Source: a virus
Taxonomy: Duplodnaviria; Caudoviricetes
Strand: one strand, 5' to 3'
DNA: 57,788 nucleotides
IMG/VR virus record: IMGVR_UViG_3300033076_000814
Location: 1-57,788 of that record
Positions 1 to 57,788 of this stretch are shown here, piece after piece. The translations under genes and the position numbers were made by a program. Numbering within the stretch: the stretch's first letter is position 1; each line of letters begins with the position of its first letter. The notes beneath the pieces were generated by a model. The model searched no databases and had not been told where the DNA came from. It saw only the letters and a program-made list of their open reading frames with translations.

Positions 1-41
1 GAAAGAGAAGAAGACCTCCTCCCCCCCGATCTTTCTCTTTC
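1..41. repeat. Left-terminal hairpin
   Basis: gaaagagaa (1-9) is the reverse complement of ttctctttc (33-41). Confidence 0.6.
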
Positions 42-128
42 AATATAGATCATACCCTCTATAACAAAAAAAAAGAATTTCTTATTATTATTTTTTATTA
101 TTTTTTATTTTTTTTCTGAAAATTTTGT

Positions 129-136
129 TATTTTTG
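129..136 (+). promoter_or_regulatory. Bacteroidota -7 promoter element (TAnnTTTG)
   Basis: TATTTTTG upstream of the first operon. Confidence 0.55.
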
Positions 137-141
137 CTCTC

Positions 142-317
142 ACGCCAATGATTAAGAGATGAAGAAAATCGAAAAAAAATTATTTAGAAGTCAAAAATTG
201 CTCAAAGACATATTTGATGCAACCCAATTCCCATTGTTCCCAGTAAACTCTTGTTTATGGTTAATCATTGGCGTTTTTAATCCATTTTAAACATTACTGG
301 GGCAATGGGAAGCATCA
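142..317 (+). promoter_or_regulatory. Structured 5' leader with two crossing inverted repeats, one covering the ORF1 start codon
   Basis: 142-155 pairs perfectly with 261-274; 215-246 pairs with 294-317, which includes ATG 305. Confidence 0.6.
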
Positions 318-1219
318 GAAAACAACAAAAGAGGGTATCTGGCTTAAAAAAGTACAATCGAATAGTTAGCACCTTAGTTAAGGATCATAAAAAAAAGGGT
401 GAAACTTATGATTTAAGAGAGGTTCGGAAGATTGCCAGTAGTCTTTATCCTAATTTTAAAGAAACGCCATTAAAAGGGATTAGAAAGAGAGATATTCTTT
501 CTGCAACTCCAAAATCATTATTATCTTCCCAGAGAGGTTTTCAAAAACCATCAAAAGAAGAACCATCATACACATTACCTCCAGAATTTACTGATCCAAA
601 TGAAAGATATTATTATGATTTGGCAGATTTACTTGGATTAATTGAAACTGAAATACCAAATGATGTATTTTTTATATCAGAACTTGCTGGTTCAGAGGGT
701 TTAATTATTCGAGGTGGAACAAAACTTGAACCATCTGCCGAAGCATTTTATGTCAATAATTTTCAAAATTTAATAGCTTATTTGGATAAGCAACGCCAAT
801 CTGGGCAATTTAAAGATGATAGTGGTGGAGATTTTAGAATACCTTGTACTCCAGCAAAATTTGATAACAAAAACAAACATTGGGTTAGTAAAATAATTCT
901 TGTTGATGCGGATGGAAATAAATTAGGATCAGATGGTTTTGATCCAGAAGCATCAAGAATAATGGATGCTTTTAATCCAGATCAAAAGTATGCCTCCGAA
1001 CCAGCACCAACGAAACCTAAATCAACAAAGAAAGCACCAGAACCAACTGGGGGAATGTCACCAGAAGAAATTAGAGTTAGAAGCAAGGAAGCGGAAAATG
1101 TTGAGTTCAATCAAGATATAGAAGCAATTAAACTCGGAATATTTGGTGCTGGTACGCCAGAACAACAGAAAAAAGCATTTTTAGATAAATGGACAAAAAG
1201 AGGAAGATTTAAAGCATAA
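305..1219 (+). CDS. Hypothetical protein with basic N-terminus (possible terminal or DNA-binding protein)
   Basis: 304 aa ORF, first gene of the left end. Confidence 0.75.
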   Translation: MGSIRKQQKRVSGLKKYNRIVSTLVKDHKKKGETYDLREVRKIASSLYPNFKETPLKGIRKRDILSATPKSLLSSQRGFQKPSKEEPSYTLPPEFTDPNERYYYDLADLLGLIETEIPNDVFFISELAGSEGLIIRGGTKLEPSAEAFYVNNFQNLIAYLDKQRQSGQFKDDSGGDFRIPCTPAKFDNKNKHWVSKIILVDADGNKLGSDGFDPEASRIMDAFNPDQKYASEPAPTKPKSTKKAPEPTGGMSPEEIRVRSKEAENVEFNQDIEAIKLGIFGAGTPEQQKKAFLDKWTKRGRFKA

Positions 1220-2749: not shown

Positions 2750-3421
2750 ATGAAGTATTTAAACAATGGCGTTCAAGTAAACGCAATTCAATGGAATGGT
2801 CAAAACAAAGATGAGATCATCAGATTTTTTGGAGATGATCCAACAAAGATGGATTATCAATCTGCTAATGGGATATACATGATTTATGGAGATCAATTGT
2901 ATTTGCGTATGGCAAATGGTCAGTTGATGGTTAATATAGGTGATTATGTAGTTCAGACACCTCGCCTTACTTACTATCCATGCAATCCAAATGATTTTGA
3001 AAGGGATCATAAGCCGATTGGAGAAAGTCAAGAAAAAATGTTAGCACAAGACATTCCAGCAGTTGATCCAATAGCAATGTTAAAGCAGTTTAACGAAGTG
3101 AGTATCGAGAGTATCGAAACCTCGCCAATTAATGTTTCTATTCTGGAGGGTAAATATCTTGTGATGAAACAAGGTCAAATCCATTTATGTTTTTACCCAG
3201 ATCAATTTGTTTTGCTTCAAAAAACAATTAATCAAATTGTAAATGGTTTGAATGGTGTTGTTGAAGAACCAGAACCAACCCCAGAAGAAAAACAAGTATC
3301 TGCTGATCCATCAAATACAGAAACAGAATTTGAGTGGGATGTAAAAGCACCAGAAGTGGATAATACAACTCCAGAAGATTTAGCTGGATTGAGCAAAAAC
3401 GATAACGAAGAAAATAAATAG
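2750..3421 (+). CDS. Paralogue of the preceding protein with acidic C-terminus
   Basis: VNAIQWNGQN...GDYVV...YYPCNPNDF. Confidence 0.7.
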   Translation: MKYLNNGVQVNAIQWNGQNKDEIIRFFGDDPTKMDYQSANGIYMIYGDQLYLRMANGQLMVNIGDYVVQTPRLTYYPCNPNDFERDHKPIGESQEKMLAQDIPAVDPIAMLKQFNEVSIESIETSPINVSILEGKYLVMKQGQIHLCFYPDQFVLLQKTINQIVNGLNGVVEEPEPTPEEKQVSADPSNTETEFEWDVKAPEVDNTTPEDLAGLSKNDNEENK

Positions 3422-3424
3422 GTT

Positions 3425-3940
3425 ATGGCAAAGCAACAAGGTAAACCAGTAAATCCGATTGATGAAGAAATCAAATCGGAAATGACAAAATCCTCTCCAG
3501 TTCCTCCAGTTGAGGAGAGTAAAAGTATGGAAACATTTGAACAAGAAATAGATGTTAAATATGATGGAAATGATCCAAACCCATTTGCTGATCCATCCGA
3601 ACCAGTAGATGTAATTCCGCTTCCAGAAAGAGAGATAATTCTTCCAAAAAGATATTTTGTTTCGGAATGTTTATACAGACCTACAAATGTTGAAAGAGGT
3701 GAATATGATTTCTCTGAATTTTTAATTGACATGGAAACAATCCAATCGATTGAAAAAATATTTCCAGAAAGATTGCTTGATTTTGGAGTAGGTGAGAAAG
3801 AGGCGGAATTGAACAATATGATGGATGGATGTATTATTTATGCATCAGCATTTGCAGAAGAAATGATTGTTCTTGATTATTCATTTGAAGAATTAATCCA
3901 AAACTTAATTGAATATCGTGGCAACGAAACAAGTAAGTGA
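3425..3940 (+). CDS. Acidic hypothetical protein
   Basis: 171 aa ORF; contains a 35-bp repeat also found in the 18219-22715 gene. Confidence 0.7.
   Translation: MAKQQGKPVNPIDEEIKSEMTKSSPVPPVEESKSMETFEQEIDVKYDGNDPNPFADPSEPVDVIPLPEREIILPKRYFVSECLYRPTNVERGEYDFSEFLIDMETIQSIEKIFPERLLDFGVGEKEAELNNMMDGCIIYASAFAEEMIVLDYSFEELIQNLIEYRGNETSK
3479..3513 (+). repeat. 35-bp exact direct repeat, copy 1 (copy 2 at 21429-21463)
   Basis: gaaatgacaaaatcctctccagttcctccagttga at both sites, encoding EMTKSSPVPPVE. Confidence 0.9.
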
Positions 3941-4691
3941 ATTTGATTACCAGAGATTACTCGCTCTCCAGATAGCGAACAAAAATCCGTTTTCAGAACA
4001 TTTCAGAGGATCAAGAAAAACTTTGATTGTATTTGGTAGGGAAGTTTGTACTTCGTTATCTGGAGGTGATACTCTGGATATTGGTGATATTTCTGATCGT
4101 CAATTTAAATCCTTTCTTGGATCATTCAAGAGAGGGTTGTATGCCCAATTTCAGAAACATCCAGAATTAATCAACCTACAAGTTGATTTTGCTGGAATGT
4201 CAAAAGGAAAAAACAAAAAAGAATTTCAGAAAATCAGAAACTTCTCATATTATTGGAACATTGATTTGTCATCTGCATACTGGCAAATAGGACATAGGTT
4301 GGGATATGTTTCTGATAGTTTTTACTCAAAGTATATTGATCGTAATGAATATAAAGCGGTTAAGCGTTTATGTTTTTCTTTCCTATCCAGAACCAACTGG
4401 AGAGAATATAATCTTTTAGATGAAACATTTATCATTAACTGCGATAATACAATAGAACGCCAATGTTATAAAAATGTCCGAAAGGAATTGTACCGAATAA
4501 TATCTGGTGCATTGCAAATAGCTGGTGATGATTATATAGATTTCAACATTGATGCAATAAGTGTTTCTAAGTCTAAGAAAAATGAAATACTTGACTATTT
4601 TAAATCATTGAATTTAGATGTAAAAGTCAATAGAATTACCAAAGTCAATGATTATCAGATAGAAACAAAAGGTCGTATCCGAAATTTCTAA
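3918..4691 (+). CDS. Miniature family-B DNA polymerase-like palm protein (no exonuclease domain)
   Basis: Motif A-like WNIDLSSAYWQ, motif B-like YKAVKRLCFSFL and motif C-like DFNIDAISV in the expected order; start at GTG 3918 or TTG 3909. Confidence 0.55.
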   Translation: MATKQVSEFDYQRLLALQIANKNPFSEHFRGSRKTLIVFGREVCTSLSGGDTLDIGDISDRQFKSFLGSFKRGLYAQFQKHPELINLQVDFAGMSKGKNKKEFQKIRNFSYYWNIDLSSAYWQIGHRLGYVSDSFYSKYIDRNEYKAVKRLCFSFLSRTNWREYNLLDETFIINCDNTIERQCYKNVRKELYRIISGALQIAGDDYIDFNIDAISVSKSKKNEILDYFKSLNLDVKVNRITKVNDYQIETKGRIRNF

Positions 4692-5612: not shown

Positions 5613-6419
5613 ATGGAAACAAAAATCCAAAAATCAAAACGCAGAGATTACCAATTGGTTGATCCTCGAAACATTATTATCCGAGAAAACTTTAATGTTA
5701 GAACGGATATGGGTGACATTGAAACATTAATGACTTCAATTGTGGAAAGTGGTCTTCAAATACCAATTAAAGCAAAAAAGGTTCGTGGATCAGATGATCA
5801 ATGGGAGGTTATCGATGGACACCGAAGAATTATGGCAATTCATCTTGCAATTGAGTATGGTCACGAAATCGATTTTGTAGAAGTGTTGCCGTATCAAGGC
5901 AAGGAAGACGATGAAGTTTTTTCAATGCTTATTACTGGTGTTGGTCAAAAGCCATTGTCGGAAATGGAACAAGCAGAGGGTATTGCCAGATTAATGCAAT
6001 TTGGACATAAGCCAGAAGATATTGCGAAGCGTATGGGAAAATCAACTCCTCATGTGTATTATCTGATTAAATTAAATTCTCTACCAGAGAAATATAAGCA
6101 GTTGATCCGAGATGGGTATATTTCTGGATATGCTATGCTTGAAATCATCGAAAATAATCCAGTAGAAGATTGGGAAGAAAAAGTTGAAAATGCCATTGCA
6201 AATGCTCAAAAGTCATCAAAAAATGGCGAGGTTAAAAAAGCAACCGCAAAGGATTTGGCTGAAAAAAAATTAAAGCCAATTGAGAAACTTCGTGACCTTG
6301 TAATTTATTTGGATGAAAATAGCATCGAAAACGACAAGGCAACAATTGTTCGTGAAGTATGGGAACGAATAAATTGCGATGAAACATTGGATGATTTAAT
6401 CATGATAATTGAAAGCTAA
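5613..6419 (+). CDS. ParB/Srx N-terminal domain protein with HTH
   Basis: NFNVR...SIVESGLQIPI...VIDGHRRIMA...LSEMEQAEGIARL...IAKRMGKS. Confidence 0.85.
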   Translation: METKIQKSKRRDYQLVDPRNIIIRENFNVRTDMGDIETLMTSIVESGLQIPIKAKKVRGSDDQWEVIDGHRRIMAIHLAIEYGHEIDFVEVLPYQGKEDDEVFSMLITGVGQKPLSEMEQAEGIARLMQFGHKPEDIAKRMGKSTPHVYYLIKLNSLPEKYKQLIRDGYISGYAMLEIIENNPVEDWEEKVENAIANAQKSSKNGEVKKATAKDLAEKKLKPIEKLRDLVIYLDENSIENDKATIVREVWERINCDETLDDLIMIIES

Positions 6420-7070: not shown

Positions 7071-7508
7071 ATGTCAAAAGGCAAAATTCAGAGCATAAAT
7101 CATGTAAGCAACTGGAAAGCAGATGATGGAACAATGTATTACTATCATCTTGTTGAAATAGCAAATGGAGATAAAGGAAAAGCACCTTTTAAATCAATGG
7201 ATCAATATAAGGTTGGAGATACAATCGAGTACGATATTATTGGTGATAGAATGAAAATTACCAAATCATCTCCTACCGCAGAAAAACCACAATCGACTGG
7301 AGGTTATGGCAAAGCACCTCGAAATTATCAATCAAATGGTAAACGATCACCAGAAGATTATTTAGGCTTCATTTATGGTTACGCAAAAGACATACATATT
7401 GCCGAGATACAAGCAACTGGCAAAAAAGTTCCTTTAGCAAACTTGAAAAAGAATGTGGAGGAAATGTATGCTCATATTCAAGAGTTGTTAAACGCAGAAA
7501 ATAAATAA
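7071..7508 (+). CDS. Possible single-stranded DNA-binding (OB-fold) protein
   Basis: Beta-rich N-terminus ending YKVGDTIEY, flexible linker, replication-module context. Confidence 0.45.
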   Translation: MSKGKIQSINHVSNWKADDGTMYYYHLVEIANGDKGKAPFKSMDQYKVGDTIEYDIIGDRMKITKSSPTAEKPQSTGGYGKAPRNYQSNGKRSPEDYLGFIYGYAKDIHIAEIQATGKKVPLANLKKNVEEMYAHIQELLNAENK

Positions 7509-8618: not shown

Positions 8619-8979
8619 TCAAGAATATAAAAAATCAGAACTTCCAAAAGATGCATTAATTCAATCGGTATTTGAAATAGCATTTGAATTGGGTTATAAG
8701 GCTGGACAAGTAAGACCTCCAGCCTCTATTGGAATGATTACAAATTTTCAGTTAGAACTTGAAAGTAATAATGCATTAAGAGATATTATTTGTATGCAGA
8801 GCCGAATGGATCAAAATGTTTATTACAAGATGCTTTCAGAATTTATAATCGAGCAGACTGCATTAAGTAGAAATTATAAGGATTTAGCAGATGTTCAAAA
8901 TCATTTCCGAAACTGGGTTCGTAAAAAAATCCAAGACAATCCTAATGTCACAAGATCATCTGATGCTGGAAGATTATGA
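8596..8979 (+). CDS. Possible replication initiator or helicase-loader-like protein
   Basis: C-terminal EF...Q...Y...HFRNWVRK; overlaps the dnaB start. Confidence 0.45.
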   Translation: MNVKQLADQEYKKSELPKDALIQSVFEIAFELGYKAGQVRPPASIGMITNFQLELESNNALRDIICMQSRMDQNVYYKMLSEFIIEQTALSRNYKDLADVQNHFRNWVRKKIQDNPNVTRSSDAGRL

Positions 8980-10577
8980 AACAAAAAATTGTCATACAAT
9001 CTGAATTTACTTCTGAACATTCTTTGAAAATTGAGCAGTTAGTTTTAGGTGCTATTTTAATTGACAAAGAGGCAATTCATGTTGTTGCAAAAGATTTTCA
9101 AATTAAGTTGTTTGATCATGAGCCTCATCAAATAATTGCAGAAGCAATCATTAAACTGCATCTGGCATCAAAGCCAATTGATTTATTGACATTGACAAAT
9201 TATTTGATCAAAGAGCAAAGTTTAGAAAGAATTGGAGGCGTTTCTGTAATCAGCAATTTAACCAGCAATGTGGCTGGTTCTACAAATATTGAATATCATC
9301 TTCGATTGCTTCAAGAGTTTTGGTTAAAGAAATACATTTCGGATATGTGTTCTGCAACTCAACTTCAATTAATCGAATACAAAAGAGATGTGTTTGATGT
9401 TTATTCTGATCTTCAAAATAATCTGGACAATGCCTTAAAAGACATAATAACAACAGAAATATCTCCTATCAATGAGGTTCATATTGATATGGTTAAATCT
9501 GGGTATGAAATTGTAGATGGAAAAGGAACTTCTGGAGTGCCAACTGGACTTCAAAGATTTGATATTCTCACAAATGGTTTTCAGCCATCAGATTTGATCA
9601 TATTGGCTGGAAGAACATCGATGGGTAAGACCGCATTTTCAATATCTATTTTGATTAAGCCATGCATAGATGATAAAATTCCAGTTGCCGTTTTTTCATT
9701 GGAGATGTCTAAGGAGCAATTAACTGGTAGGGTGCAATCAATTTTATCAAAAGTTAATGTTTCCAAGATTGTAAAAAAGCAATTGACATTTGACGAAATT
9801 ACGCATATACACAACAAATGTAAAGTTCTGGCAGATGCCCCTATGTTCATTGACGATACTGCAAATATTTCTCTATTGGAATTGAAATCTAAAAGCCGAA
9901 AATTGGTTCGAGAAAAAGGTGTAAAAATGATTGTAATTGATTATCTACAATTAATGCGATCTGGATTAAAAACCACATCCAGAGAACAAGAGGTTGCAGA
10001 AATTTCTAAAGGATTAAAAGCTATTGCGAAAGAACTCAACATACCAGTAATTGCATTATCTCAATTATCCAGAGGTGTAGAACAAAGACAAGGTTCAAAA
10101 AAACCAATGCTTTCCGATCTTCGAGATAGTGGTCAGATAGAGCAAGATGCCGACATGGTGTTATTTTGTTTTAGACCAGAATATTACAATCAAACAGAAT
10201 ACGATTGGTTTGGTGTAAATCTGGATACTCGAAATTTGTTTATGCTGATCGTGGCAAAGCATAGAAATGGTGTGCTTGGTGAAATTCCGCTTAATTTCTT
10301 TGGAGAACACACCTATGTAACCAACCATTCCGATACTTATAGCCTTTATCCTACATCAAATAATGAGAGTATGCAAACACCATCATACCCAAAAATAAAT
10401 AGTATTGAAACACCAGATTTATCTTACTTTAATGGTGCGAATATGCCAAGAAATATTAACTTTGAAAATGATAATGAAAGTACGAAAGTACCAAATGAAG
10501 ATGGTCAAATTGATATGGATGGTATGAGATTGCCTTATAAAGACGATAATGATATGCTGGATAATACCCCATTTTAA
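8976..10577 (+). CDS. dnaB: Replicative DNA helicase DnaB
   Basis: EQLVLGAIL, Walker A LAGRTSMGKT, FSLEMS, VIDYLQL, ALSQLSR, DLRDSGQIEQDAD, AKHRNG. Confidence 0.97.
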   Translation: MKQKIVIQSEFTSEHSLKIEQLVLGAILIDKEAIHVVAKDFQIKLFDHEPHQIIAEAIIKLHLASKPIDLLTLTNYLIKEQSLERIGGVSVISNLTSNVAGSTNIEYHLRLLQEFWLKKYISDMCSATQLQLIEYKRDVFDVYSDLQNNLDNALKDIITTEISPINEVHIDMVKSGYEIVDGKGTSGVPTGLQRFDILTNGFQPSDLIILAGRTSMGKTAFSISILIKPCIDDKIPVAVFSLEMSKEQLTGRVQSILSKVNVSKIVKKQLTFDEITHIHNKCKVLADAPMFIDDTANISLLELKSKSRKLVREKGVKMIVIDYLQLMRSGLKTTSREQEVAEISKGLKAIAKELNIPVIALSQLSRGVEQRQGSKKPMLSDLRDSGQIEQDADMVLFCFRPEYYNQTEYDWFGVNLDTRNLFMLIVAKHRNGVLGEIPLNFFGEHTYVTNHSDTYSLYPTSNNESMQTPSYPKINSIETPDLSYFNGANMPRNINFENDNESTKVPNEDGQIDMDGMRLPYKDDNDMLDNTPF

Positions 10578-10580
10578 TTT

Positions 10581-11102
10581 ATGGAACTTAAAGACCAAAG
10601 AATAGAAGCGTTAAAATTAATTGTATGTGAATACTACAAAGTATCTCCATCGATTTTAGATGATCCATCTAATAAAATACCCAAACCATTTTTGCGACAA
10701 ATGATTTCTTATTTTGCAAATACGATGTTGAATATTACCCAGCAGTCACTTGCTGATTATTGGAATAAAAAAACTCATGCATCGATTTGTACATCAATCA
10801 ATAATGTCCGAAATAACATGGATGTTAATAAAAGATTGAGATTTGAAGTTCAAGACTTGACAAGAATTATTAATGAAAAAGGTATTTCAGAAAAATCACC
10901 GAAGAACAATGAATGGTATCGGTTTATCGATCTAAATAATTTTGTTCTGGCAACATCTGGATCAAAAGCAATATTGATGGTAAACTTAACTCCAGAAGAA
11001 ATTGAAAATTTAAAACTTCAAGACTGGAACATTGAGCCTCAAAATAATACTGGTAAGTTTTATTACACCAGACTAAAGCAAGTAAACAATCAAAACAAAT
11101 AA
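10581..11102 (+). CDS. DnaA domain IV (C-terminal HTH)-like DNA-binding protein
   Basis: IVCEYYKVS...RQMISYF...SLADYWNKKTHASI resembles the DnaA C-terminal domain. Confidence 0.6.
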   Translation: MELKDQRIEALKLIVCEYYKVSPSILDDPSNKIPKPFLRQMISYFANTMLNITQQSLADYWNKKTHASICTSINNVRNNMDVNKRLRFEVQDLTRIINEKGISEKSPKNNEWYRFIDLNNFVLATSGSKAILMVNLTPEEIENLKLQDWNIEPQNNTGKFYYTRLKQVNNQNK

Positions 11103-11525: not shown

Positions 11526-11674
11526 AATTCAAAGTAGGTCAAAAAGTAAAGTTTAATAACGATGTAGGAGTTATTGAAGAAATACATAATGTAAGAACAA
11601 AAACTTACAAGGTTGTTTTTGATGGCAGATTTACATTTTACATTAAAGAGAAATATTTAGAATTACATGAGTAA
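11522..11674 (+). CDS. Small SH3/KOW-like protein, 50 aa (not in ORF track)
   Basis: MKFKVGQKVKFNNDVGVIEEI...; fills the gap, overlaps both neighbours. Confidence 0.65.
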   Translation: MKFKVGQKVKFNNDVGVIEEIHNVRTKTYKVVFDGRFTFYIKEKYLELHE

Positions 11675-12152
11675 AAGTTCTCTGGGGCAACTATGGATCA
11701 ATGAGGGTGTTGTAACTCCAATTATTGAGAAGAAATTTGAACTGGATTATTCCAGAAAATTTTTTGTTTTCGATGTTGTTCCGATGGGTGCGGTTCGTAT
11801 GTCACAATCTGATAGATGGAGGACTAATCCTAATCATTCTGATCCGAACAAAAGACAAAGACCAGAAGTATCAAGATATTTCCATTTTAAGGATGTTGTA
11901 AGGAGGCAAAGCAAAGAAATGAACTACATTCAAGGAGATACTCTGGATATAGTTTTCTGCGTTCCCATGCCATCAAGCTGGAGTAAAAAGAAACAACTCC
12001 AAATGAATAAAATGCCAGTTAAAACCAGACCAGATATTGACAATTATGTAAAAGCATTTTTGGATGCTTTACTGATTGAAGATAACAATATCTGGATGGC
12101 AAAAGCTGAAAAAAGATACGCATTTAGCGGATCAATAATTGTTTATCAATAA
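11667..12152 (+). CDS. rusA: RusA-family Holliday junction resolvase
   Basis: PMGAVRM...VPMPSSWSKKK...RPDIDNYVKAFLDAL..EDNNIW...EKRY. Confidence 0.85.
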   Translation: MSKSSLGQLWINEGVVTPIIEKKFELDYSRKFFVFDVVPMGAVRMSQSDRWRTNPNHSDPNKRQRPEVSRYFHFKDVVRRQSKEMNYIQGDTLDIVFCVPMPSSWSKKKQLQMNKMPVKTRPDIDNYVKAFLDALLIEDNNIWMAKAEKRYAFSGSIIVYQ

Positions 12153-14342: not shown

Positions 14343-16742
14343 TTGGCACAAATTAAAGAAACATCTGATGCAAAAAAGGGTGGATTGTTTGTAGGAAAAT
14401 CACATAAAGATGGTGGTATTCCAGCAATCGTTACCGATACTGGGCAACCGATAGAAGTTGAGGGCGGAGAAGCTATTATCAACAAGGAAGCAACTGCAAA
14501 ACATTGGAAAGAATTAAGCGAGATAAATCAATCTGCTGGTAATGGTGTTCCAATTCCTCCTCCATCATCTGTTCAAGAAATGGAAGAAAAATTTGCCAAA
14601 GGTGGGAAATTAACAAACCCAGAAAAAAAAGAGATTTACGATAAATGGAAATCTTTGGTCAACATGACTGCATCCGAACTTCGCAGATATTATCACACAA
14701 AAGATGGTAAAGAAAGTGGTTTGACAAAAGCGGAAGCCGAAGAACATGGTATTTCATCTGGCAGAGAAAGTGCCGAATGGATCATGAAAATGAAAAAGGT
14801 AAACTGGAAAAAATGGACACCAGAAATGTGGATTTGGGCAACAAAACAGATTTCTTTCATTTCCAGAATGTCTGGCATTAAGGGTGATTTGTACGATGAC
14901 AAAAAACAAAAAACAAGAAAGCATAAAGCATTGCTTATCTGGGGGCATAATCCAAAGAAATCCAGTTCGGTAAAACTGGAGCATGGAGGACAATTAGCAC
15001 CAAAAGGTGATAACAATAAAAACAGAAAATGGAAAGTTCGTTTTCATCTCGGTGCTGGTAAGGATTTTATGAAATGGAAAGTTGAAAATGCAGATTTAAA
15101 ATCTGTTCATTTCTATGAACCAGAGAAAGTTCAAATACGGATGACGAATTGTAAACTAACCAATTCCCCAGCAACCGCACAAAAAATATTTTCTGGTGAA
15201 ATCAATAAATCTCCAATTGCATGGGTAAATTGTGAAAAAGCCGAAGTTGATGAAACAATTGATCCAGTAAATTTGGCTGAAAGAATTTCTTACAATCCAA
15301 GAAAATCTCCTTATTGGCTGGATGCTGATGGAAACATTATCGACAACTTTATTTTTGATCATTTAATCACTTTTGGTCGAAGCGTTTATTATGATGATGG
15401 TACAGATGTTTATGAAGTTGGCGGATGGGTTGATGAGTTTGCAGAGGGAGGTAATATTTCCAAAGAAGAAAAATTTGACAAAGGCGGTATTGCTGGATTA
15501 AAAGCCATGTTGCCATTTGTGTCTGGATCAGAAAAAGATGATCTTATTGCGGAAATATCCAGATTGGAAACAGAAGAAATGTCATCAAGTGAAACTCCAA
15601 AAACTAAGACATCAAAATCTCTCCCAGAACCAGCAAAAGTAGATAAAATGATTAGTCAAATTAACCAAAAATATCTTCATCAAGCGGAAGTGATTTTAGG
15701 AGCATCAAGTACCAATGAGCAAAGAAAATTATTGTTGGATTGGATACTTGATCCATCTCAAAATGTTAAGGTTATAATTGCTTTTTCTGGAGGTAAGGAT
15801 AGTGTTGCTATGGTTTTAAGAGCAATCTATGAGTTTAAGATACCTAAGCATCAAATTGAATTATGGCATCACGAAGTAGATGGAATGGGTGAGAATATTT
15901 GGGATTGGAAATGTACTCCATCATATTGCAAGGCATTTGCTAAAGCAATGGGAGTTCCAATTTTGTTTTCTTATGCAGATGGCGGAATTACAAAGGAAAT
16001 TTATAAGGAAAATGGATTTTTACAGCCAGTTTACTTTCAGCAAGAACAAGATGGTGAATATCAGCGTGTTGATCCGAGAGGTTGGGAAAGTGACAGAGGC
16101 ACAAAACGAAATTTCCCAGCAGTAAATTCATCATTGTTAACAAGATGGTGTAGTGGTGTGGTTAAGGTTGATGTAATGAGCAAAGCCATTAACAATTCAC
16201 CTCGATTTGATCAAGCTAATCTTGTTATAATGACTGGTGAAAGAAGATCAGAGAGTACCAACAGATCAAAGTATAAGGAAATTGAAAAATATCGTAACTC
16301 AACAAAAAAGCGAAAAGCAATTACATGGAGATCAGTTATTGACTTAACTGAAAAAGAAGTGTGGGATTTGTATGAAAAACATAAAATTCAGCCTCATCCT
16401 TGTTACGAACTTGGTTGGGGTAGATGTTCATGCCAAATTTGTATTTTTAACGGCAAGGATACATGGTCATCAGTCAATGAGATTGATCCTAAAAAGATTG
16501 AAAAAATTGCTTCTATTGAGAATGATATAGGCAAAACTCTTTACGCAAAAAGGGTAAAGAAAAAAGTAGTTACCGAAAACATTTATGAAGCAAGGGTAAA
16601 TAAGGGTAAATCTTTTATTGATCCAGTAATTTTAAAGCGTTGGGGTAAAGAGGCATTGGGAGAGTTTGTTTCTCCTATTTTTGTCCAAGAATGGAAATTG
16701 CCGAAAGGTGCATTTAGTGAAGAACAAGCTGGAGCAAATTAA
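14343..16742 (+). CDS. Modular protein: GxSH..GG/EVEGGE domain, DUF3140-like domain, unknown domain, PAPS-reductase-like PP-loop enzyme
   Basis: TTG start; LVNMTASEL...SGRES...WGHNP; IAFSGGKDS, RWCSGVVK, GERRSES..R, HPCYELGWGRCSCQICIF. Confidence 0.8.
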   Translation: MAQIKETSDAKKGGLFVGKSHKDGGIPAIVTDTGQPIEVEGGEAIINKEATAKHWKELSEINQSAGNGVPIPPPSSVQEMEEKFAKGGKLTNPEKKEIYDKWKSLVNMTASELRRYYHTKDGKESGLTKAEAEEHGISSGRESAEWIMKMKKVNWKKWTPEMWIWATKQISFISRMSGIKGDLYDDKKQKTRKHKALLIWGHNPKKSSSVKLEHGGQLAPKGDNNKNRKWKVRFHLGAGKDFMKWKVENADLKSVHFYEPEKVQIRMTNCKLTNSPATAQKIFSGEINKSPIAWVNCEKAEVDETIDPVNLAERISYNPRKSPYWLDADGNIIDNFIFDHLITFGRSVYYDDGTDVYEVGGWVDEFAEGGNISKEEKFDKGGIAGLKAMLPFVSGSEKDDLIAEISRLETEEMSSSETPKTKTSKSLPEPAKVDKMISQINQKYLHQAEVILGASSTNEQRKLLLDWILDPSQNVKVIIAFSGGKDSVAMVLRAIYEFKIPKHQIELWHHEVDGMGENIWDWKCTPSYCKAFAKAMGVPILFSYADGGITKEIYKENGFLQPVYFQQEQDGEYQRVDPRGWESDRGTKRNFPAVNSSLLTRWCSGVVKVDVMSKAINNSPRFDQANLVIMTGERRSESTNRSKYKEIEKYRNSTKKRKAITWRSVIDLTEKEVWDLYEKHKIQPHPCYELGWGRCSCQICIFNGKDTWSSVNEIDPKKIEKIASIENDIGKTLYAKRVKKKVVTENIYEARVNKGKSFIDPVILKRWGKEALGEFVSPIFVQEWKLPKGAFSEEQAGAN
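15474..15520 (+). repeat. 47-bp direct repeat, copy 1 (copy 2 at 17054-17100, one mismatch)
   Basis: tttgaYaaaggcggtattgctggattaaaagccatgttgccatttgt encodes FDKGGIAGLKAMLPFV in both genes. Confidence 0.9.
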
Positions 16743-16744
16743 TT

Positions 16745-18217
16745 ATGGAATATATCAAATCTTTATTGGCACAAGGGTATGAATTAGGTGAATTACCTAA
16801 AGACTTAAAAGAAGCAGTTGAATTAATTTTTTCTGCTCCAAATCGAACTTCCAGAATAGAAGCATTAGATTACACAACATTGTGTGCTATTCGTGAAATC
16901 AGACCAACCGATCCGAGAATAGAAAACTTGTTTAACATTTCAGACCTTGTTGCATCAACGCAAGAGAACAATGGATTTAATACAAATATCGAATTTAAGC
17001 CAGAGGTTAATTTGATTTCAAATCCAGTAACACAAGAGCCAATTGAAAGTAAGTTTGATAAAGGCGGTATTGCTGGATTAAAAGCCATGTTGCCATTTGT
17101 TTCAAAGGAAGAAATGGAGATTATTAAAGCCGAAATCACCAGACTGGAGAGTATTAGCGTTGATAAAGATATTCCATCAACAATGGTTGGAAACACATCG
17201 CAGTTTGAAGTTTTTACCGAAGTAATGCAAGTGGATTTAACTCCTCAAAATGTTGCTGATCATTTAAAGTCGGAAAGACAAAAAAATCCAGAACCGCAGT
17301 TGACATTATTGTCATTTGGCGGTGGTCAAGATAGCTGGGCAATGTTATACAAATTGATTTTTGATCCAAAGTTTAAAAAGAAGTATGCTCCAAAAGATTT
17401 GGTGGTTGTTATGTCTGATACTGGCAATGAGCATCCTTACACATACAAAGGTGTAAAAGAAGCGGAAGCCTTGTGTAAAAAGCACAATATTCCATTTAAA
17501 TTTTTAAAAAATGACATGGGGTATCATACAGAGGGTTGGATGTCATTAAAAGCAAACTTGATCCGAAACAAAGTAATTCTTTCTGCAACAATGGGTTCAA
17601 AACCATGCACATCTGCCTTAAAGATCAATCCTTTGGATAAGTATTTAAGAGAATTTATGTGCGATAAATATGGTTTTGAAAATTTATCCGCACCAACAAG
17701 TTGGAAATCTTACGAAGACAAGTTTGGAACTAAAGTTCGTGTACTAATTGGTTTTGCGAAAGACGAAGAAATGAGAGCCATTAAAAGCATAAAAGTTCTT
17801 CATACTCTACCGAAGTACAAGCAAAGACATTTCCAATATGTTTTTCCATTAATTGAGGAGGGTTGGAATAGACAATCAGCACAAGACATTATTACGCAGT
17901 ATCACCCATATCTTATTCCTCCATCAAACTGCATGATCTGTTTTTATCAATCTGATCAAGAATTGATTTGGCTGGAAAGAAATCATCCAGAAGAATTTTA
18001 TGAATGGGTTGAGATGGAAAAGGCAAAATTAGATAGATTTGCCAATGATCCAAATGTCAAAAATAATGGGGTTTATGGTGCGGTTAATTTGCTTCAAAAA
18101 CTGGAAATGGCAAAGGATAAAAAAGATGGAAATGGTGTTCGTCTTGGTGATTATACTGATGAGCAACTTTGGGAATATAAAATGTCGCATGGTCATTGCG
18201 TAAAATCAAGTTTTTAA
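16745..18217 (+). CDS. Second PAPS-reductase-like (PP-loop, Cys-cluster) protein with N-terminal extension
   Basis: LSFGGGQDS, SDTGNEHP.TY, PCTSALKI.P, IGF..DE..R, FPLIE, PPSNCMICFYQ. Confidence 0.8.
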   Translation: MEYIKSLLAQGYELGELPKDLKEAVELIFSAPNRTSRIEALDYTTLCAIREIRPTDPRIENLFNISDLVASTQENNGFNTNIEFKPEVNLISNPVTQEPIESKFDKGGIAGLKAMLPFVSKEEMEIIKAEITRLESISVDKDIPSTMVGNTSQFEVFTEVMQVDLTPQNVADHLKSERQKNPEPQLTLLSFGGGQDSWAMLYKLIFDPKFKKKYAPKDLVVVMSDTGNEHPYTYKGVKEAEALCKKHNIPFKFLKNDMGYHTEGWMSLKANLIRNKVILSATMGSKPCTSALKINPLDKYLREFMCDKYGFENLSAPTSWKSYEDKFGTKVRVLIGFAKDEEMRAIKSIKVLHTLPKYKQRHFQYVFPLIEEGWNRQSAQDIITQYHPYLIPPSNCMICFYQSDQELIWLERNHPEEFYEWVEMEKAKLDRFANDPNVKNNGVYGAVNLLQKLEMAKDKKDGNGVRLGDYTDEQLWEYKMSHGHCVKSSF

Positions 18218-18218
18218 G

Positions 18219-21200
18219 ATGGAAGTTTTTAAATATAACGATGTTCTTGGTGGCATCATTGAAAGAAGACCAAATGGTTTGGTTGATGTAGATTTTGCTG
18301 GAACAATTTTAACTCTACATGAGAGTGAAAACGAATTTAAGTCAATCGAACCTCCAGTTGATGCTCCAGAGTTCAAAACTGGAGGGGAAATCAAATCCGA
18401 CAAAGATGTTTACGAAAATGGCAACTTACAAATCCGATATTTGGGAAATGATGTTGCTTACTACAAGCGTTTGAATAACGAATGGAAGTTTTTGTCATCA
18501 GACGAATTACAGAAGCTACATGAGGGTACAAAACATGAGATGGAGCATAAATCTACAATAGAAGTTTTTAAAAGAAACAATGTTCCGACACCTATAATAG
18601 CATCGTTTATTGCATGGGATCATATCTCTGAAACACCAGACTATTATTCTAAACTGGATAAAGCAATTCCAGAACCAGAAAAAAAATTTGACGATGGCGG
18701 AATGACTGGAGATGTTCAACCAAACCCAGAACCAAATCCAGAGGAAGAAAAAATGCTCATTCAATCCAAAATAAAAGAGGAATTGAATAGTGTTGATTTT
18801 CACAAAAAAATGATCGTAGTTTTCGCTTCCGAACTTGAAAGTTTAAATGAGGAAAGAGAAGCAGTAGTTGAGAAATACAGACATCTCAAATATCCAGAAA
18901 ATCAAGACAGATATAAAAAAACCGATGAAATCGACAAGAAAATTATTCCTTTAACGAAAGTAATTGAGTATGCTAAAAATTGTCTAAAATGTCTTGAAAA
19001 CAAGGGTACTTTAAGATCGTTTACAGACATGAAAGGTGTTTCTCATAATTTGATAAGTGACTGGAGAGATGTTCCAACAGATAACATCATGTTTAATGAG
19101 GAAACTATACTTGTTGATCCAGTTCCAGTTTTTATACCAATTTTTGATGAAACATTATTAAAGCGTAGAGCATTTATCATGGATGCTATTCGATTATCTC
19201 CAGATACTTATATTGTTTCTACTGATGCGTATGATAGTAAAGAAACCCCTCAATTTTATTCCAAATTCGTACTTGTGACTTTGGATCAGTTGGTGTTGAT
19301 TTCAGATTATTATTTCAAAAAAGTTAAAGCCAAATTAAAAGCGGAAGCCGAAAATAAAACTTTAAAACAAGAGCAATATTATGATAGTTTGCCAGAGGCA
19401 ACCAGAGAAAGACATTTCAATCAAGCTAATTTCTATTTTAGCCTACCAGCTAATGTAAAGAAAAAGATCACCAAAGAAGATTGGGAAAAATTGGATTTAG
19501 CTGGTAAAGAAAAAGTTTACAAGCCATTTAAAAGATATGGTTCTGAAAGAATTACATCATCTCTGGAAGCTGATAAAATGTATAATAGTTTTCACAATAT
19601 GTATGAGAGGTTTATAAACCCAAATGCAGTTGTTCAAGTTGAAAAAGGTCAAAGATATGCTGATCCAGAAGTTTGGGCATATTGGAAAACTTTTAGAGAG
19701 ATGATGGATTTTAAAATTAAAGACATCCAATCTCAAAGAGCATACTTAAATGAAGCCTACGCAACTGCGGTAGAAACTTCATTTGGCGAAAGCAATACCT
19801 CAACAATTTTACAAGAAAATTATGGGGTATTAGTTAAAAGGCAAAATGGAGATAAAATCAATTCGATTGAAATTACCCAGATTGAAACTGCTTTAATCAA
19901 GGTTTATTCTGCTTATGGCAATTGCCGAAGAATAGCATTAAAAGACAATATTAAAGTTTCTCATACTGGAAACAGATTAGTTTTTGGAACAAAAGCAGTT
20001 GGTATTTATCATCCAACAATGCACACAATATCTTCTTCGATGAAGTATGGAGATAGGCAGTTTCAAATGACAATGGCACATGAATTTGCTCATTTTATCG
20101 ACAATTTTATCGGTATGTCAAATGGTAAAATGTATGCATCTGGGGAATATGAAAGTATAGCTGGAAAAATTGCATTTACTTTTAGAAACAATATGAATAA
20201 ACCAAAAAGCCAGCAAAGTGATTACATTAATTCTACCCAAGAATGTTTCGCAAGAGCATTAGAGCAATACTTTACTTTAGAAGAACTTGGTGAGGATGCT
20301 GGTTTATCCTTTTCATACAAAGAATTGAAAAAAGTAACTCCAATAAGCAATGGAGATGATTTTGTTTCTTTAGAAAAATTTGACACATTAATTAGACCAT
20401 TAATAGTTGAATTTTTTGAAACTTACAAAGACATATTTGATAAAACAATTGATGTTAGTGTTCCAGAGAAACCTCTGGAAATAGAAGAACAAGATTTGAA
20501 AGAAGTTGAACCAGAACCGATACAATCAATAGAACCATCAACAAATGAAATAGATGAACTCCCAAATGCTATTAAAGGATTAGAAGCCTATTTGCCTTAT
20601 GCTCCAGAAAGCGAAAAAATGGAAGTGGTTGATGCAATCAAAGGTCTAAAAGCATCTTTGAAATTGATGTCGGAATTTCCATCAACTTCTCCAGTATCAA
20701 CTTTGGATAAAACATTTGAAAGCGAAGTAGCTAATTTAAAAAATGTGAGTGATAAAGAGTTGTCGGATCAACTAAGACAAAGCAATAAATCTTTAAAGCA
20801 CTACGAAGAAGAATATGCTTCAAATATGGTTGATTATTATAAGCAATTTATTGCGGAAATTAAAGCAGAGCAATTAAGAAGAAAAAAATCCTCTCCAGTT
20901 CCAAAAGGTGAGAGAAATTATTTAAAAGAAGCAAAAGATTTCTTTATGGAGGCTGGTTTTATTGAAGACTTAAATTCTGATCCAAAACATTATGTAGTTG
21001 AATTGATCAATGCGATGGACAAGCCTTTCAGAACAAAATCGGAAAAAGAAGCCGAACAATATTTTATCGAAATGGGTTTCATCGAAGACCTTTCTACTGA
21101 TCAAAGATTTTATGTTGAAAAACTTATTGAAAACTCAAAAGCTAAAAAATCCACAGATCAACCAGTAAAAGCTGATATTTCTAATGAGGTAAAGTATTTT

Positions 21201-47456: not shown

Positions 47457-47879
47457 ATGGCTTTCGTTCCAAATTCTACAATGCAAAACCAAGCATTTGC
47501 AGTTATTCAGTTTGGTGTTGCAATTGCACCAACACTACAAGCACCAACCTTATTGACTTGTACAGACAATCAAGGCAATACAATCAAAAAAACAATTCTT
47601 GAAGTTGATGCTTCTGGAGGTCAAATTGACATTATGCTTCCAAGTATTGCAAGTTTGTCAAATGACTTAAACTGCGAAATTGATGTGGTTATTATTGAGG
47701 GTACTGGTGCGATCAATATTTTATCAAATATCGATCTTGGTACTGGTGTTCCATCTGGGGATACTATTGGTCAAACTGCAAATTTAAACATTGCTGGTGC
47801 AACATATACGATTGGTGCAGTTTTGACTTTTAAACCAGCTTATGAGGGGTTCTGGTCTTATTCTGTAACAGAGAATTAA
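47457..47879 (+). CDS. Beta-rich structural protein, tandem paralogue 1
   Basis: TCTDNQGNTIKKTILEVDASGG...FKPAYEGFWSYSVTEN. Confidence 0.7.
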   Translation: MAFVPNSTMQNQAFAVIQFGVAIAPTLQAPTLLTCTDNQGNTIKKTILEVDASGGQIDIMLPSIASLSNDLNCEIDVVIIEGTGAINILSNIDLGTGVPSGDTIGQTANLNIAGATYTIGAVLTFKPAYEGFWSYSVTEN

Positions 47880-47883
47880 GATA

Positions 47884-48294
47884 ATGCCAATCTATATTCC
47901 GATACAAAATCAATCTTTTATTAAGGTAGTTTCCTCTGGGGCAATTGCTCCAGAGGTAAATATGCCTTGCCTATTTACTTGCTTAGACAATCAAGGAAAT
48001 ACCATTAAAAAAACCATAGTAGAAATTGATGCTTCTGCTGGAGAGGTTTTTACTATGCTTCCAAGTATTGAAAGTTTGGCAAATGATTTGGATTGTGAAA
48101 TTAGTTGCATCATACTCGATAATTCAAACATTGTAAATTTTATCTCGTTTGATGATGGGGTAACACCTCCAGTAGATTTAATAGGTCAATCAACCAATTT
48201 ATCTATTGTGGCTGGAACTTATCATGCTGGTGTTGTAATAACATTTAAACCAGCTTATGATGGTTACTGGACATATTCTGTAACTGAAAATTAA
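47884..48294 (+). CDS. Beta-rich structural protein, tandem paralogue 2
   Basis: TCLDNQGNTIKKTIVEIDASAG...FKPAYDGYWTYSVTEN. Confidence 0.7.
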   Translation: MPIYIPIQNQSFIKVVSSGAIAPEVNMPCLFTCLDNQGNTIKKTIVEIDASAGEVFTMLPSIESLANDLDCEISCIILDNSNIVNFISFDDGVTPPVDLIGQSTNLSIVAGTYHAGVVITFKPAYDGYWTYSVTEN

Positions 48295-48298
48295 AAAC

Positions 48299-57725: not shown

Positions 57726-57788
57726 AAAGGAGATTGAATGAGATCAAAAGAGATTGAGTAAAGAGTGAATGAGAGTGATTAAGGAGGA

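Follow-up and report, generated by a model that had tools for sequence, protein, structure and literature searches.

A miniature polymerase-like protein and its partner gene at the left end of a phage genome, a candidate minimal device for starting DNA synthesis

INTRODUCTION

What can a protein of only 260 amino acids (aa), reminiscent of the core of a family B DNA polymerase (PolB), do for a phage that brings its own DnaB helicase and no recognizable primase or full polymerase? The question is raised by a gene near the left end of IMG/VR record IMGVR_UViG_3300033076_000814, a virus of the class Caudoviricetes, which we analyzed over positions 1 to 57,788 (hereafter the window, 57,788 nucleotides [nt] in length). 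We call the product of this gene mini-PolB and the first open reading frame (ORF) of the genome ORF1. An earlier note, drawn from the sequence of the window, had taken mini-PolB for a nucleotidyltransferase dedicated to end patching or protein priming on a linear genome otherwise copied by the host polymerase III (Pol III), with ORF1 as its possible terminal protein. New in the present analysis are the near-universal pairing of mini-PolB with ORF1, the position of both genes at the genome end in the subfamily of the window, and the absence of polymerase and primase families from five records. We suggest that this pair may be a new minimal device for starting DNA synthesis.

RESULTS

Mini-PolB is encoded by a real gene

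The gene has the following coordinates.

3909..4691, plus strand: mini-PolB gene, 260 aa, TTG start, stop codon within the coordinates, 32-nt overlap with the upstream ORF

The TTG start is credible, because relatives that begin at the same place align at the N terminus. A word-indexed search returned 430 candidates, among them 27 relatives of mini-PolB (222 to 262 aa, 39 to 90% identity), and 4 of the 27 lie on contigs of 56.7 to 58.4 kb. An exhaustive phmmer search of 1.84 billion representatives gave 184 matches at an E value of ≤1e-3, 83 at 1e-10, and 32 at 1e-30; the 150 matches listed range from 65 to 323 aa, with no fused or long protein among those listed. So many matching proteins argue for a real gene rather than a chance ORF. 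The family is large, since each of the 184 matches represents a cluster formed at 50% identity. Neither Pfam nor PHROGs contains it, and the sole PHROGs match of mini-PolB was not significant (E = 0.069). A tblastn search of 50,697 phage records with mini-PolB and two distant relatives gave no match, so that we found no cultured phage carrying the gene. In the ESM Atlas, mini-PolB falls into all-viral clusters without Pfam families, the three nearest of which are 100% viral; the nearest named clusters, which we treat as leads only, contain PF03175 and PF00136 in 10% of their members (scores of 0.87 and 0.85, respectively).

The residues expected in a PolB active site are conserved

The ORF of about 260 aa singled out by the earlier note is present exactly as described, with DLSSAY (residues 119 to 124), K..KRL..S (residues 149 to 157), and NIDAI (residues 213 to 217) in the order of PolB motifs A, B, and C. 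Its segments are located as follows.

3909..4208, plus strand: N-terminal domain, residues 1 to 100 (helix, three strands, long helix)
4257..4286, plus strand: motif A-like NIDLSSAYWQ, residues 117 to 126, with D119 at the end of strand 114-120 and Y124 at the steric-gate position
4350..4391, plus strand: motif B-like helix YKAVKRLCFSFLSR, residues 148 to 161, with the conserved lysine K149; helix 146-158 in the model
4542..4562, plus strand: motif C-like FNIDAIS, residues 212 to 218, with D215 at the hairpin turn between strands 209-213 and 216-219
4623..4643, plus strand: strand with K239 and K245, at the position of the PolB KxY strand (strand 238-244; last helix, 250-259)

Conservation was evaluated on an alignment of 144 full-length proteins (235 to 330 aa) out of 177, the 33 fragments being left out. 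The two aspartates on which the proposal of the earlier note hung are conserved among homologs, D119 in 144/144 sequences and D215 in 143/144 (Asn in the remaining one). K149 is kept in 140 proteins (3 others have Arg and 1 has Gln), and position 124 is aromatic in all of them (131 Tyr, 8 Phe, 5 Trp). Further conserved positions are W125 (130/144), G132 (135/144), N189 (137/144), R191 (129/144), and K245 (137/144), with K239 kept in 104 sequences; no residue before N102 is conserved at 80% or more. In the motif B-like helix, K149 is better conserved than K152, which is Lys or Arg in 128/144 sequences, and the position four residues after K149 is Arg in 80 proteins and Asn in 37, which yields Kx3N in distant subfamilies. 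Two of these, A4 and A5, read KLxRN at motif B, (V/I)D(V/I)xH(C/A)YWR at motif A, and YR(T/V)DG at motif C. Position 213 of motif C is mostly Asn (83 sequences), Arg (22), or Thr (12), and Asp never occurs among the residues listed there.

D119 and Y124 fit PolB motif A, DxxSLYPS, in which an Asp is followed five residues on by an aromatic steric gate, and we set the helix bearing K149 beside motif B, Kx3NSxYG on the fingers helix. By analogy, D119 and D215 would hold the two metals, K149 would contact the incoming triphosphate, the aromatic residue at 124 would exclude ribonucleotides, and K245 would touch the primer end; for the steric gate and the KxY strand, these roles follow the account of PolBs given in PMC5695915. 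The same source describes a motif C with two aspartates (YxDTDS), of which mini-PolB keeps D215 alone.

The predicted fold is a PolB-type palm reduced to its core

AlphaFold2, supplied with a 28-sequence alignment, produced a confident model of mini-PolB (predicted local distance difference test [pLDDT], 89.3; predicted template modeling [pTM] score, 0.83). In this model, the strand ending at D119 is followed by three short helices, the third of which carries K149, by a small hairpin, and by a long helix (181-208); then come the hairpin with D215 at its turn, a helix, the strand leading to K245, and one last helix. As modeled, this order of elements matches a right-hand polymerase palm whose fingers insert is very short.

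We then aligned the model with every representative PDB chain. The phi29 polymerase came first (Z = 7.9; root mean square deviation [rmsd], 5.4; 236 residues aligned), followed by an archaeal PolB (7.8), Pol alpha (7.7), the herpes simplex virus polymerase (7.4), a herpesvirus helicase-primase chain (7.4), the RB69 polymerase (7.0), and Escherichia coli Pol II (6.6). A PolA (6.0) and the reverse transcriptase of a diversity-generating retroelement (5.8) ranked lower. When the best 1,000 chains from Foldseek were re-aligned, 19 reached a Z of at least 8, and the best 50 were all PolBs or herpesvirus helicase-primase chains. The top chain was Pol alpha, whose residues 842 to 1072 align with residues 98 to 258 of the model (Z = 8.7; rmsd, 3.2; 140 aligned); the N-terminal 100 residues were reached only by loose whole-chain alignments (phi29 polymerase and Pol II, both with Z = 7.9 and rmsd 5.5). 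According to these alignments, the confident model is predicted to be a polymerase palm of the PolB type, as the earlier note had supposed.

Foldseek alone found nothing in the PDB at E ≤1e-3, and its weak list mixes reverse transcriptases and PolBs. Reverse transcriptases head that list (best E, 2.4e-3; TM score, 0.23 to 0.26), but they align with mini-PolB at lower Z than PolBs do, and motif C of mini-PolB reads Y/F-N-I-D, compared to YxDD in reverse transcriptases. Among the predicted viral structures of BFVD, seven matched at E ≤1e-3, three of them "DNA polymerase" entries of uncultured siphoviruses, and just above this line (E = 1.3e-3) stood an entry from a crustacean virus, 290 aa long and named "divergent family B DNA polymerase." A profile search of PDB sequences with mini-PolB gave a single chance-level match (E = 0.021) to a 69-aa protein.

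The matched herpesvirus helicase-primase chains are, we assume, UL8, which has a PolB-like fold without an active site. They resemble mini-PolB over 153 to 174 aligned residues (Z = 8.0 to 8.3), and UL8 is part of a helicase-centered initiation machine, as mini-PolB may be. It is a protein of about 750 aa from a eukaryotic virus and has lost its catalytic residues. Such a loss of acidic residues is not seen in mini-PolB, where D119 and D215 are the best-conserved positions.

The earlier note saw no exonuclease domain, and this holds: only about 100 residues precede the palm, none of them conserved at 80% or more, and they have no Pfam match. This N-terminal domain may be what is left of an exonuclease, or it may bind DNA in place of one. 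Mini-PolB is thumbless, because the protein ends 15 residues after K245, with the single helix 250-259. Its fingers are far shorter than those of any PolB. With only 29 residues between D119 and K149 and 65 between K149 and D215, the insertions TPR1 and TPR2 are absent and cannot fit into 260 aa. By structure, mini-PolB is related to family B, pared down to the core; by the family's own criteria, it is not a member.

ORF1 is the near-universal partner of mini-PolB

The gene that opens the genome is listed here with the ORF directly upstream of mini-PolB.

305..1219, plus strand: ORF1, 304 aa, first gene of the genome (basic N-terminal helix, central alpha/beta domain, C-terminal helical hairpin)
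3425..3940, plus strand: accessory ORF, 171 aa, between ORF1 and mini-PolB, found only in the window and two related loci (L003 and L004)

We looked for loci harboring mini-PolB with four subfamily alignments (A1, A4, A5, and A6) and assembled a set of 85, which includes the window, 13 IMG/VR loci, one contig of a metagenome-assembled genome (MAG), and 69 loci from metagenomes that a distant subfamily retrieved. ORF1 relatives upstream of mini-PolB were called from BLAST clustering and an iterated hidden Markov model (HMM). A gene of the ORF1 family lies upstream of mini-PolB in 45 of the 48 loci that offer at least 1,200 nt of room, the other three being L019, L079, and L090, and the gap between the two genes is 35 nt or less in 39/59 pairs. 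The pairing persists even though mini-PolB identity drops to about 20%. Within the 13 IMG/VR loci of the window subfamily, an HMM of ORF1 relatives matches the upstream ORF in 10; a 270-aa ORF occupies the ORF1 slot in L006 and joins the family upon HMM iteration, and two contigs begin at or inside mini-PolB. Six small ORFs are inserted between ORF1 and mini-PolB in the window. The accessory ORF does not belong to the core cassette, because only the window, L003, and L004 carry it.

Prediction of a complex between ORF1 and mini-PolB gave an ipSAE score of 0.41 (0.41, 0.40, and 0.48 in the individual runs), compared to 0.00 for the best control, a weak support. The mark used for ipSAE is reached by 58/80 solved complexes and 2/110 mismatched pairs; scores of 0.60 or below comprise only 7/80 solved complexes and both of the mismatched pairs that passed. 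The runs share at least 39% of their contacts, and the partner pLDDT is at least 75. ORF1 itself has no family in Pfam, PHROG, or the Atlas. Its model (pLDDT, 78; pTM, 0.48) matched no solved structure, the best alignment (Z = 6.1) being confined to 63 residues of a helix pair, and Foldseek found nothing in the PDB at E ≤1e-3. The near-universal presence of the partner gene suggests that ORF1 completes the mini-PolB core, and we consider it probable that the two proteins work together.

The cassette opens the genome in the window subfamily

The region upstream of ORF1 is described as follows.

1..304, no strand: left terminal noncoding region, first 14 nt purine-rich, then a C/T-rich tract, partly common to the ends of L004 and L025

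Fifteen contigs represent the window subfamily, namely the window, the 13 IMG/VR loci, and a contig of 61 kb that had been assigned to a Saprospiraceae MAG. In 15/15 of them mini-PolB starts 107 to 3,909 nt from a contig end and reads inward, for which the joint chance under uniform placement is about 1e-13. ORF1 starts 126 to 437 nt from the contig end in ten of these contigs. The window begins with bases that resemble the contig starts of L004 and L025. A relative, G001, shares the positions of both window ends, the far ends being collinear to within some tens of bases. IMG/VR classes all these subfamily records as linear, without end repeats. We read the coincident ends as the fixed physical ends of a linear genome of about 57 kb, such as the earlier note's linear-genome idea needs. 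Among the assembled run contigs, one (run X3) starts at position 216 of the window and none covers positions 1 to 215; no loose end or joint is listed at the left end, so that a physical end or a circular junction is neither shown nor excluded by these contigs. In a second subgroup, whose mini-PolB has 297 to 350 aa and whose partner has 310 aa, the cassette lies 0.3 to 1.6 kb from contig ends in 8 loci.

Some further observations concern the ends. At either end of the window (positions 1 to 42 and 57729 to 57788), the top strand is rich in purines, and the far ends of the window and of two relatives (G001 and G002) are of pyrimidine-rich low complexity with short reiterations. A hairpin telomere, in which bases 1 to 8 would pair with bases 34 to 41 around a C-rich loop, was considered and dropped, as the repeat is short and imperfect. 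The Saprospiraceae contig (L026; 61,413 nt) is a complete-looking relative and hints at a host among the Bacteroidota. Pieces of 151 to 241 nt identical to the window occur in a freshwater metagenome run, and near-identical pieces occur in a wetland run (runs X1 and X2).

Replication genes follow the cassette, without a polymerase or primase family

Downstream of mini-PolB, the window carries the following genes.

5613-6419: ParB-like protein, downstream of mini-PolB
7071..7508, plus strand: ORF3, 145 aa, third conserved gene of the left-end module, directly following mini-PolB in relatives
8976..10577, plus strand: DnaB-type replicative helicase (PF03796, E = 1.1e-92; PF00772, E = 6e-22)
10581..11102, plus strand: protein with a DnaA C-terminal-like helix-turn-helix (PF08299, E = 7.1e-07; 29.6 bits versus a cutoff of 31.5)
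11667-12152: RusA, downstream of DnaB

DnaB is conserved in 6/8 related loci. The protein encoded next to it may, judging from its domain match, be an origin binder or a helicase loader. The ORF3 cluster (c5) is found downstream of mini-PolB in 14 loci; searches with ORF3 found no family and no PDB relative below an E value of 0.2.

We screened for PolA, PolB, PolB_2, Pol III alpha, Toprim_2, Toprim_4, the DnaG zinc ribbon, and Prim-Pol. PF00476, PF03175, PF07733, PF13155, PF13662, PF01807, and PF09250 gave no match in the window record and four relatives, and PF00136 gave none in six records; control genomes were positive each time. As far as profiles can see, the gene content reported earlier (a DnaB helicase with no recognizable primase or full polymerase) is therefore correct.

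DISCUSSION

A two-protein unit that may start phage DNA synthesis

We propose that mini-PolB is a catalytically competent, stripped-down PolB-type core, made of a palm, stub fingers, and an N-terminal domain of about 100 residues. ORF1 would supply what this core lacks, probably the holding of DNA or primer, or else the priming group itself, and the putative heterodimer would make only short DNA tracts, since low processivity is to be expected where a thumb and processivity domains are missing. The unit would then start phage DNA synthesis, either de novo like the primer-independent PolBs (piPolBs) or on ORF1 as a protein primer, after which the DnaB helicase of the phage and the host replicase would copy the 57-kb genome. 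The confidence that we attach to these steps differs. Mini-PolB is likely an active nucleotidyltransferase. An initiation role for the pair is put forward tentatively, and protein priming as the form it takes is unlikely. The proposal as a whole, initiation role included, thus stands as a candidate for which the balance falls slightly on the side of doubt. We favor the initiation role in the phage group of the window because the cassette heads the replication module, because no primase or polymerase family was found there, and because the piPolBs provide a precedent.

The piPolBs of pipolins are full-size enzymes. Unlike mini-PolB, they need no partner, and we detected no sequence relation between the two. 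They set a precedent in that a PolB can produce the primers it uses, as PMC5695915 describes, and in the survey of PMC7544198 they resemble mini-PolB in keeping the second motif C aspartate alone. Since piPolBs without the first aspartate are reported there to be active, activity of mini-PolB is compatible with its single motif C Asp. According to PMC5695915, piPolBs differ from mini-PolB in having retained the exonuclease site, TPR1, and TPR2, and their KxY strand is altered to KH-X8-KTRG, with an extra conserved Lys upstream. The strand of mini-PolB is similar in being altered and in having such an extra Lys, but it reads K239-x5-K245, with no TRG.

Several points weigh against the proposed initiation unit. 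As far as the model goes, the link of mini-PolB to PolBs is structural only: mini-PolB matched no Pfam family at E ≤10, its 144 relatives matched no PolB family and no recurring family at E ≤1, and hhalign comparisons with the phi29 polymerase (E = 0.17) and with a 120-sequence phi29-like profile (E = 0.062) were not significant. The nonsignificant alignment with the phi29 polymerase pairs YNIDGI with its YCDTDSI. Z scores of 7 to 9 are graded as middling, and because values of 7 to 8 are common for models without a true match, the case for the fold is built on the uniform list of matches and the coverage of the whole palm, not on the score. The equivalence of D119, D215, K149, and Y124 to residues of PolB motifs A, C, and B likewise comes from the topology of the model and motif likeness, not from superposition. 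Without a thumb, the core may be unable even to hold a primer-template. Phages with DnaB but no primase can use the host primase, as SPP1 does, so no priming gap needs filling. CheckV rates three records, that of the window included, as 48% complete, a caveat to the absence of polymerases and primases. The coincident contig ends could also reflect a low-complexity tract that breaks assemblies at the same place in every member.

The distant subfamilies add to these points. In five metagenome contigs of 40 to 101 kb (L043, L053, L063, L064, and L090), the cassette lies inside the contig, flanked on either side by at least 8 kb. The only IMG/VR match of the A4 and A5 alignments is a 170-kb contig (L019), in which mini-PolB is also internal, with 10 kb beside it. 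In L019 (positions 9025 to 10744), as read by eye from the sequences with no family search, a tyrosine-recombinase-like ORF occupies the partner slot and is preceded by three DNA methyltransferase-like ORFs; L019 has no ORF1 homolog, and its 170-kb record gave no match to a PolA or PolB family. With the cassette internal in all these contigs, the genome-end position is not universal. A DenV-like glycosylase gene lies within 4 kb of the cassette in 14 loci, on a side that differs by subfamily, and points to repair. The end position is thus a trait of some lineages, and the repair link is found in others. Eight contigs of a distant subfamily (L042, L044, L046, L047, L054, L058, L066, and L069) end 0.05 to 4.7 kb past a mini-PolB gene that reads outward; assembly may have broken at a variable region in these contigs, or the arrangement may be another one linked to an end.

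Gap-filling repair

The main rival to an initiation unit is short-patch repair, in which the pair would close small gaps, such as those that follow the cutting of UV-damaged phage DNA by a DenV-like glycosylase; mini-PolB would then be the equivalent, with a PolB fold, of the small repair polymerases of viruses. In the distant subfamily, two genes for NAD-dependent sugar epimerases/dehydratases come first, followed by a Pyr_excise (DenV-like) glycosylase, three small unassigned genes, the ORF1-like gene, and mini-PolB. The Pyr_excise gene (PF03013; E = 1.6e-5) lies no more than 4 kb upstream of the cassette in 11 loci of the A4 subfamily (L043, L064, and nine others) and two genes downstream of mini-PolB in three more (L022, L023, and L024), and a gene for a UvrD-type helicase follows the cassette in L043 and L064. 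A thumbless, nonprocessive core would suit gap filling, and the missing proofreading fits as well. The glycosylase link is limited to 14/85 loci, with no PF03013 in the window and four related records, and repair leaves unexplained both the strict pairing with ORF1 and the first-gene position at the end of all 15 contigs of the window subfamily. We therefore regard repair as an unlikely function.

Protein priming at the genome ends

The earlier note had favored protein-primed end replication, in which ORF1 would be the terminal protein, mini-PolB would link the first deoxynucleoside monophosphate to it at the end or patch the ends, and host Pol III would copy the rest. Gene order speaks for this view: ORF1 has the size of a terminal protein (304 aa), belongs to no known family, and lies directly upstream of a PolB-type gene, both coming first at a fixed end, much as in the linear genome of phi29 the gene for the terminal protein (266 aa) stands immediately before that for the polymerase, within 3.7 kb of the left end. 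The phi29 polymerase, which tops our unbiased structural search, belongs to the protein-primed PolBs of the phi29/PRD1 type (PF03175) and shares with mini-PolB the PolB-type palm; it has 572 aa, and mini-PolB, with 260, lacks its exonuclease site, TPR1, TPR2, and thumb and does not match PF03175. The phi29 polymerase forms a heterodimer with the free terminal protein (PMC3351185), to which the weak complex prediction for ORF1 and mini-PolB would correspond, and the phi29 terminal protein has an N-terminal domain that binds DNA (PMC4357725), as the basic N-terminal helix of ORF1 might.

Other evidence does not fit. No inverted repeat of at least 12 nt links the near and far ends in 5/5 records, none of at least 30 nt occurs within the window, and its two 5' ends read differently. 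This test is not final, because repeats as short as the 6-nt terminal repeat of phi29 could be lost from assembled ends. Across 65 ORF1 relatives, G204 is the sole invariant residue, and no position is Ser, Thr, or Tyr throughout; at Y17, Y35, and Y103, Tyr predominates, but some relatives have Phe or Leu. ORF1 resembles no solved chain. In contrast to phages of the phi29 type, the phage of the window has 57 kb, its own DnaB, and no inverted terminal repeat that we could find. TPR1 and TPR2, given in PMC5695915 as a hallmark of protein-primed PolBs, have no room in mini-PolB, and the cassette is internal in another subfamily. What stands of the terminal-protein idea is thus the strong gene link and, weakly, the complex prediction; the identity of ORF1 as a terminal protein is unsupported by its residues, its fold, or the ends. 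End patching likewise lacks support, as no inverted terminal repeat was seen in the five records and the cassette lies at least 8 kb from both contig ends in a distant subfamily. On balance, we consider protein-primed end replication improbable. A bolder form of it, in which ORF1 would be a terminal protein of a new kind and mini-PolB would be smaller than every other known DNA polymerase that primes on protein, priming at an end without a long inverted repeat and handing the 3' end to the host replicase and the phage DnaB, appears quite improbable to us. If ORF1 does act as a protein primer, replication would be a hybrid of the protein-primed and helicase-driven modes. To our knowledge, such a hybrid has not been described for any virus.

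Counter-defense or a catalytically dead scaffold

The pair might instead serve early host takeover or counter-defense, with ORF1 and mini-PolB, as the first genes in the cell, making or modifying a nucleic acid or nucleotide product that blunts host defense. Their place at the genome end, ahead of the replication genes, agrees with this, as do the three putative methyltransferase ORFs beside the L019 gene, a C-5 cytosine methylase 2 kb downstream in L024, and the defense-type reverse transcriptases among the lower-ranking fold relatives. The conserved aromatic residue 124 and the PolB-like set of motifs argue instead for ordinary templated addition of deoxynucleotides, and DnaB and other replication genes follow the module in 6/8 loci. 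No defense or anti-defense family came to light, no search aimed at one having been made. We hold counter-defense to be very unlikely. Least likely is a catalytically dead PolB relic acting as a scaffold that bridges DnaB to host factors, like the PolB-like subunit of the herpesvirus helicase-primase: chains of that complex rank with the best structural matches, and their re-alignments are the longest (Z = 8.3; rmsd, 4.3; 174 aligned), and the phage encodes a helicase and no primase, but the expected catalytic residues are the most conserved of the protein, which is not expected of a relic.

Analogues and implications

The African swine fever virus Pol X is another very small polymerase without proofreading and performs short-patch synthesis. 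It has the family X (Pol beta-like) fold and acts alone, so that it differs from mini-PolB in lacking both a PolB palm and a partner. Another phage protein to compare is divPolA2 of barbaviruses and Vibrio phages, one of the two polymerase-like proteins, divPolA1 and divPolA2, described in PMC11348598: its palm appears active, thumb and exonuclease are missing, and its N-terminal domain has no known fold. It differs from mini-PolB in its palm of the PolA/RNA polymerase type, its length of 430 aa (L002:25469-26761), and the regular PolB also encoded by these genomes, and the hhalign comparison of the two was not significant (E = 0.43); the account of divPolA2 in PMC11348598 reports no conserved partner. 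We regard divPolA2 as an analogue of mini-PolB from another family. A survey of PolB diversity, which removed fragments of less than 200 residues, names PhiKZ, PolB_SITDG, and PolB_CDTDS as divergent groups (PMC7544198). A protein that is PolB-like, about 260 aa long, and accompanied by a partner gene did not come up in the literature searched; the supplementary lists of divergent polymerases in PMC7544198 and PMC11348598, which were outside the scope of our search, may hold members.

If active, mini-PolB would be by far the smallest enzyme built on a family B palm, with about 160 residues of palm and stub fingers, and the exonuclease, the thumb, and long fingers would all be dispensable given a separate partner protein. 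This bears on the origin of polymerases from a bare palm and on how replication starts in phages without a polymerase or primase of their own. A 30-kDa polymerase core may be of use to enzyme engineers, and the compact cassette is a cheap target for biochemistry. The left-end module of ORF1, mini-PolB, and ORF3 is also a marker for a widespread group of uncultured phages from freshwater and wetland samples, possibly infecting Bacteroidota.

Other features of the window

Two adjacent ORFs between ORF1 and mini-PolB (2127-2717 and 2750-3421) have a common N-terminal domain that matches PHROG 419/1810, to which no function is assigned there, and that weakly matches a PHROG with the annotation nucleotide pyrophosphohydrolase; the relatives L004, L007, L008, and L010 have further copies of it elsewhere. 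Within the accessory ORF, a 41-nt stretch (3476-3516) is 95% identical to positions 21426 to 21466, so that the accessory ORF and a 1,498-aa ORF share a short peptide. Contigs from other runs break or diverge at this stretch, with loose ends at positions 3479 to 3513.

Two adjacent paralogous ORFs (14343-16742, 799 aa, and 16745-18217, 490 aa) share a 98-nt stretch of 79% identity. They match families resembling 3'-phosphoadenosine 5'-phosphosulfate (PAPS) reductases (PHROG 424, E = 1.7e-29 and 4.5e-33; PF01507, E = 8.7e-10). A ParB-like protein is encoded at 5613-6419, and pairs of ParB-like and PAPS-reductase-like proteins are known as IbrA/IbrB-type modules. Two giant ORFs (18219-22715, 1,498 aa, and 23875-29073, 1,732 aa) match no Pfam family except for a subthreshold DUF5661. 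No terminase, portal, or capsid family was recognized among the ORFs of the window that were scanned, which implies that the structural module of this phage is very divergent. Toward the right, a tandem duplication spans positions 47457 to 48304; its repeats of 131 and 124 nt are 72 to 78% identical, lie about 420 nt apart, and span two neighboring ORFs of 140 and 136 aa.

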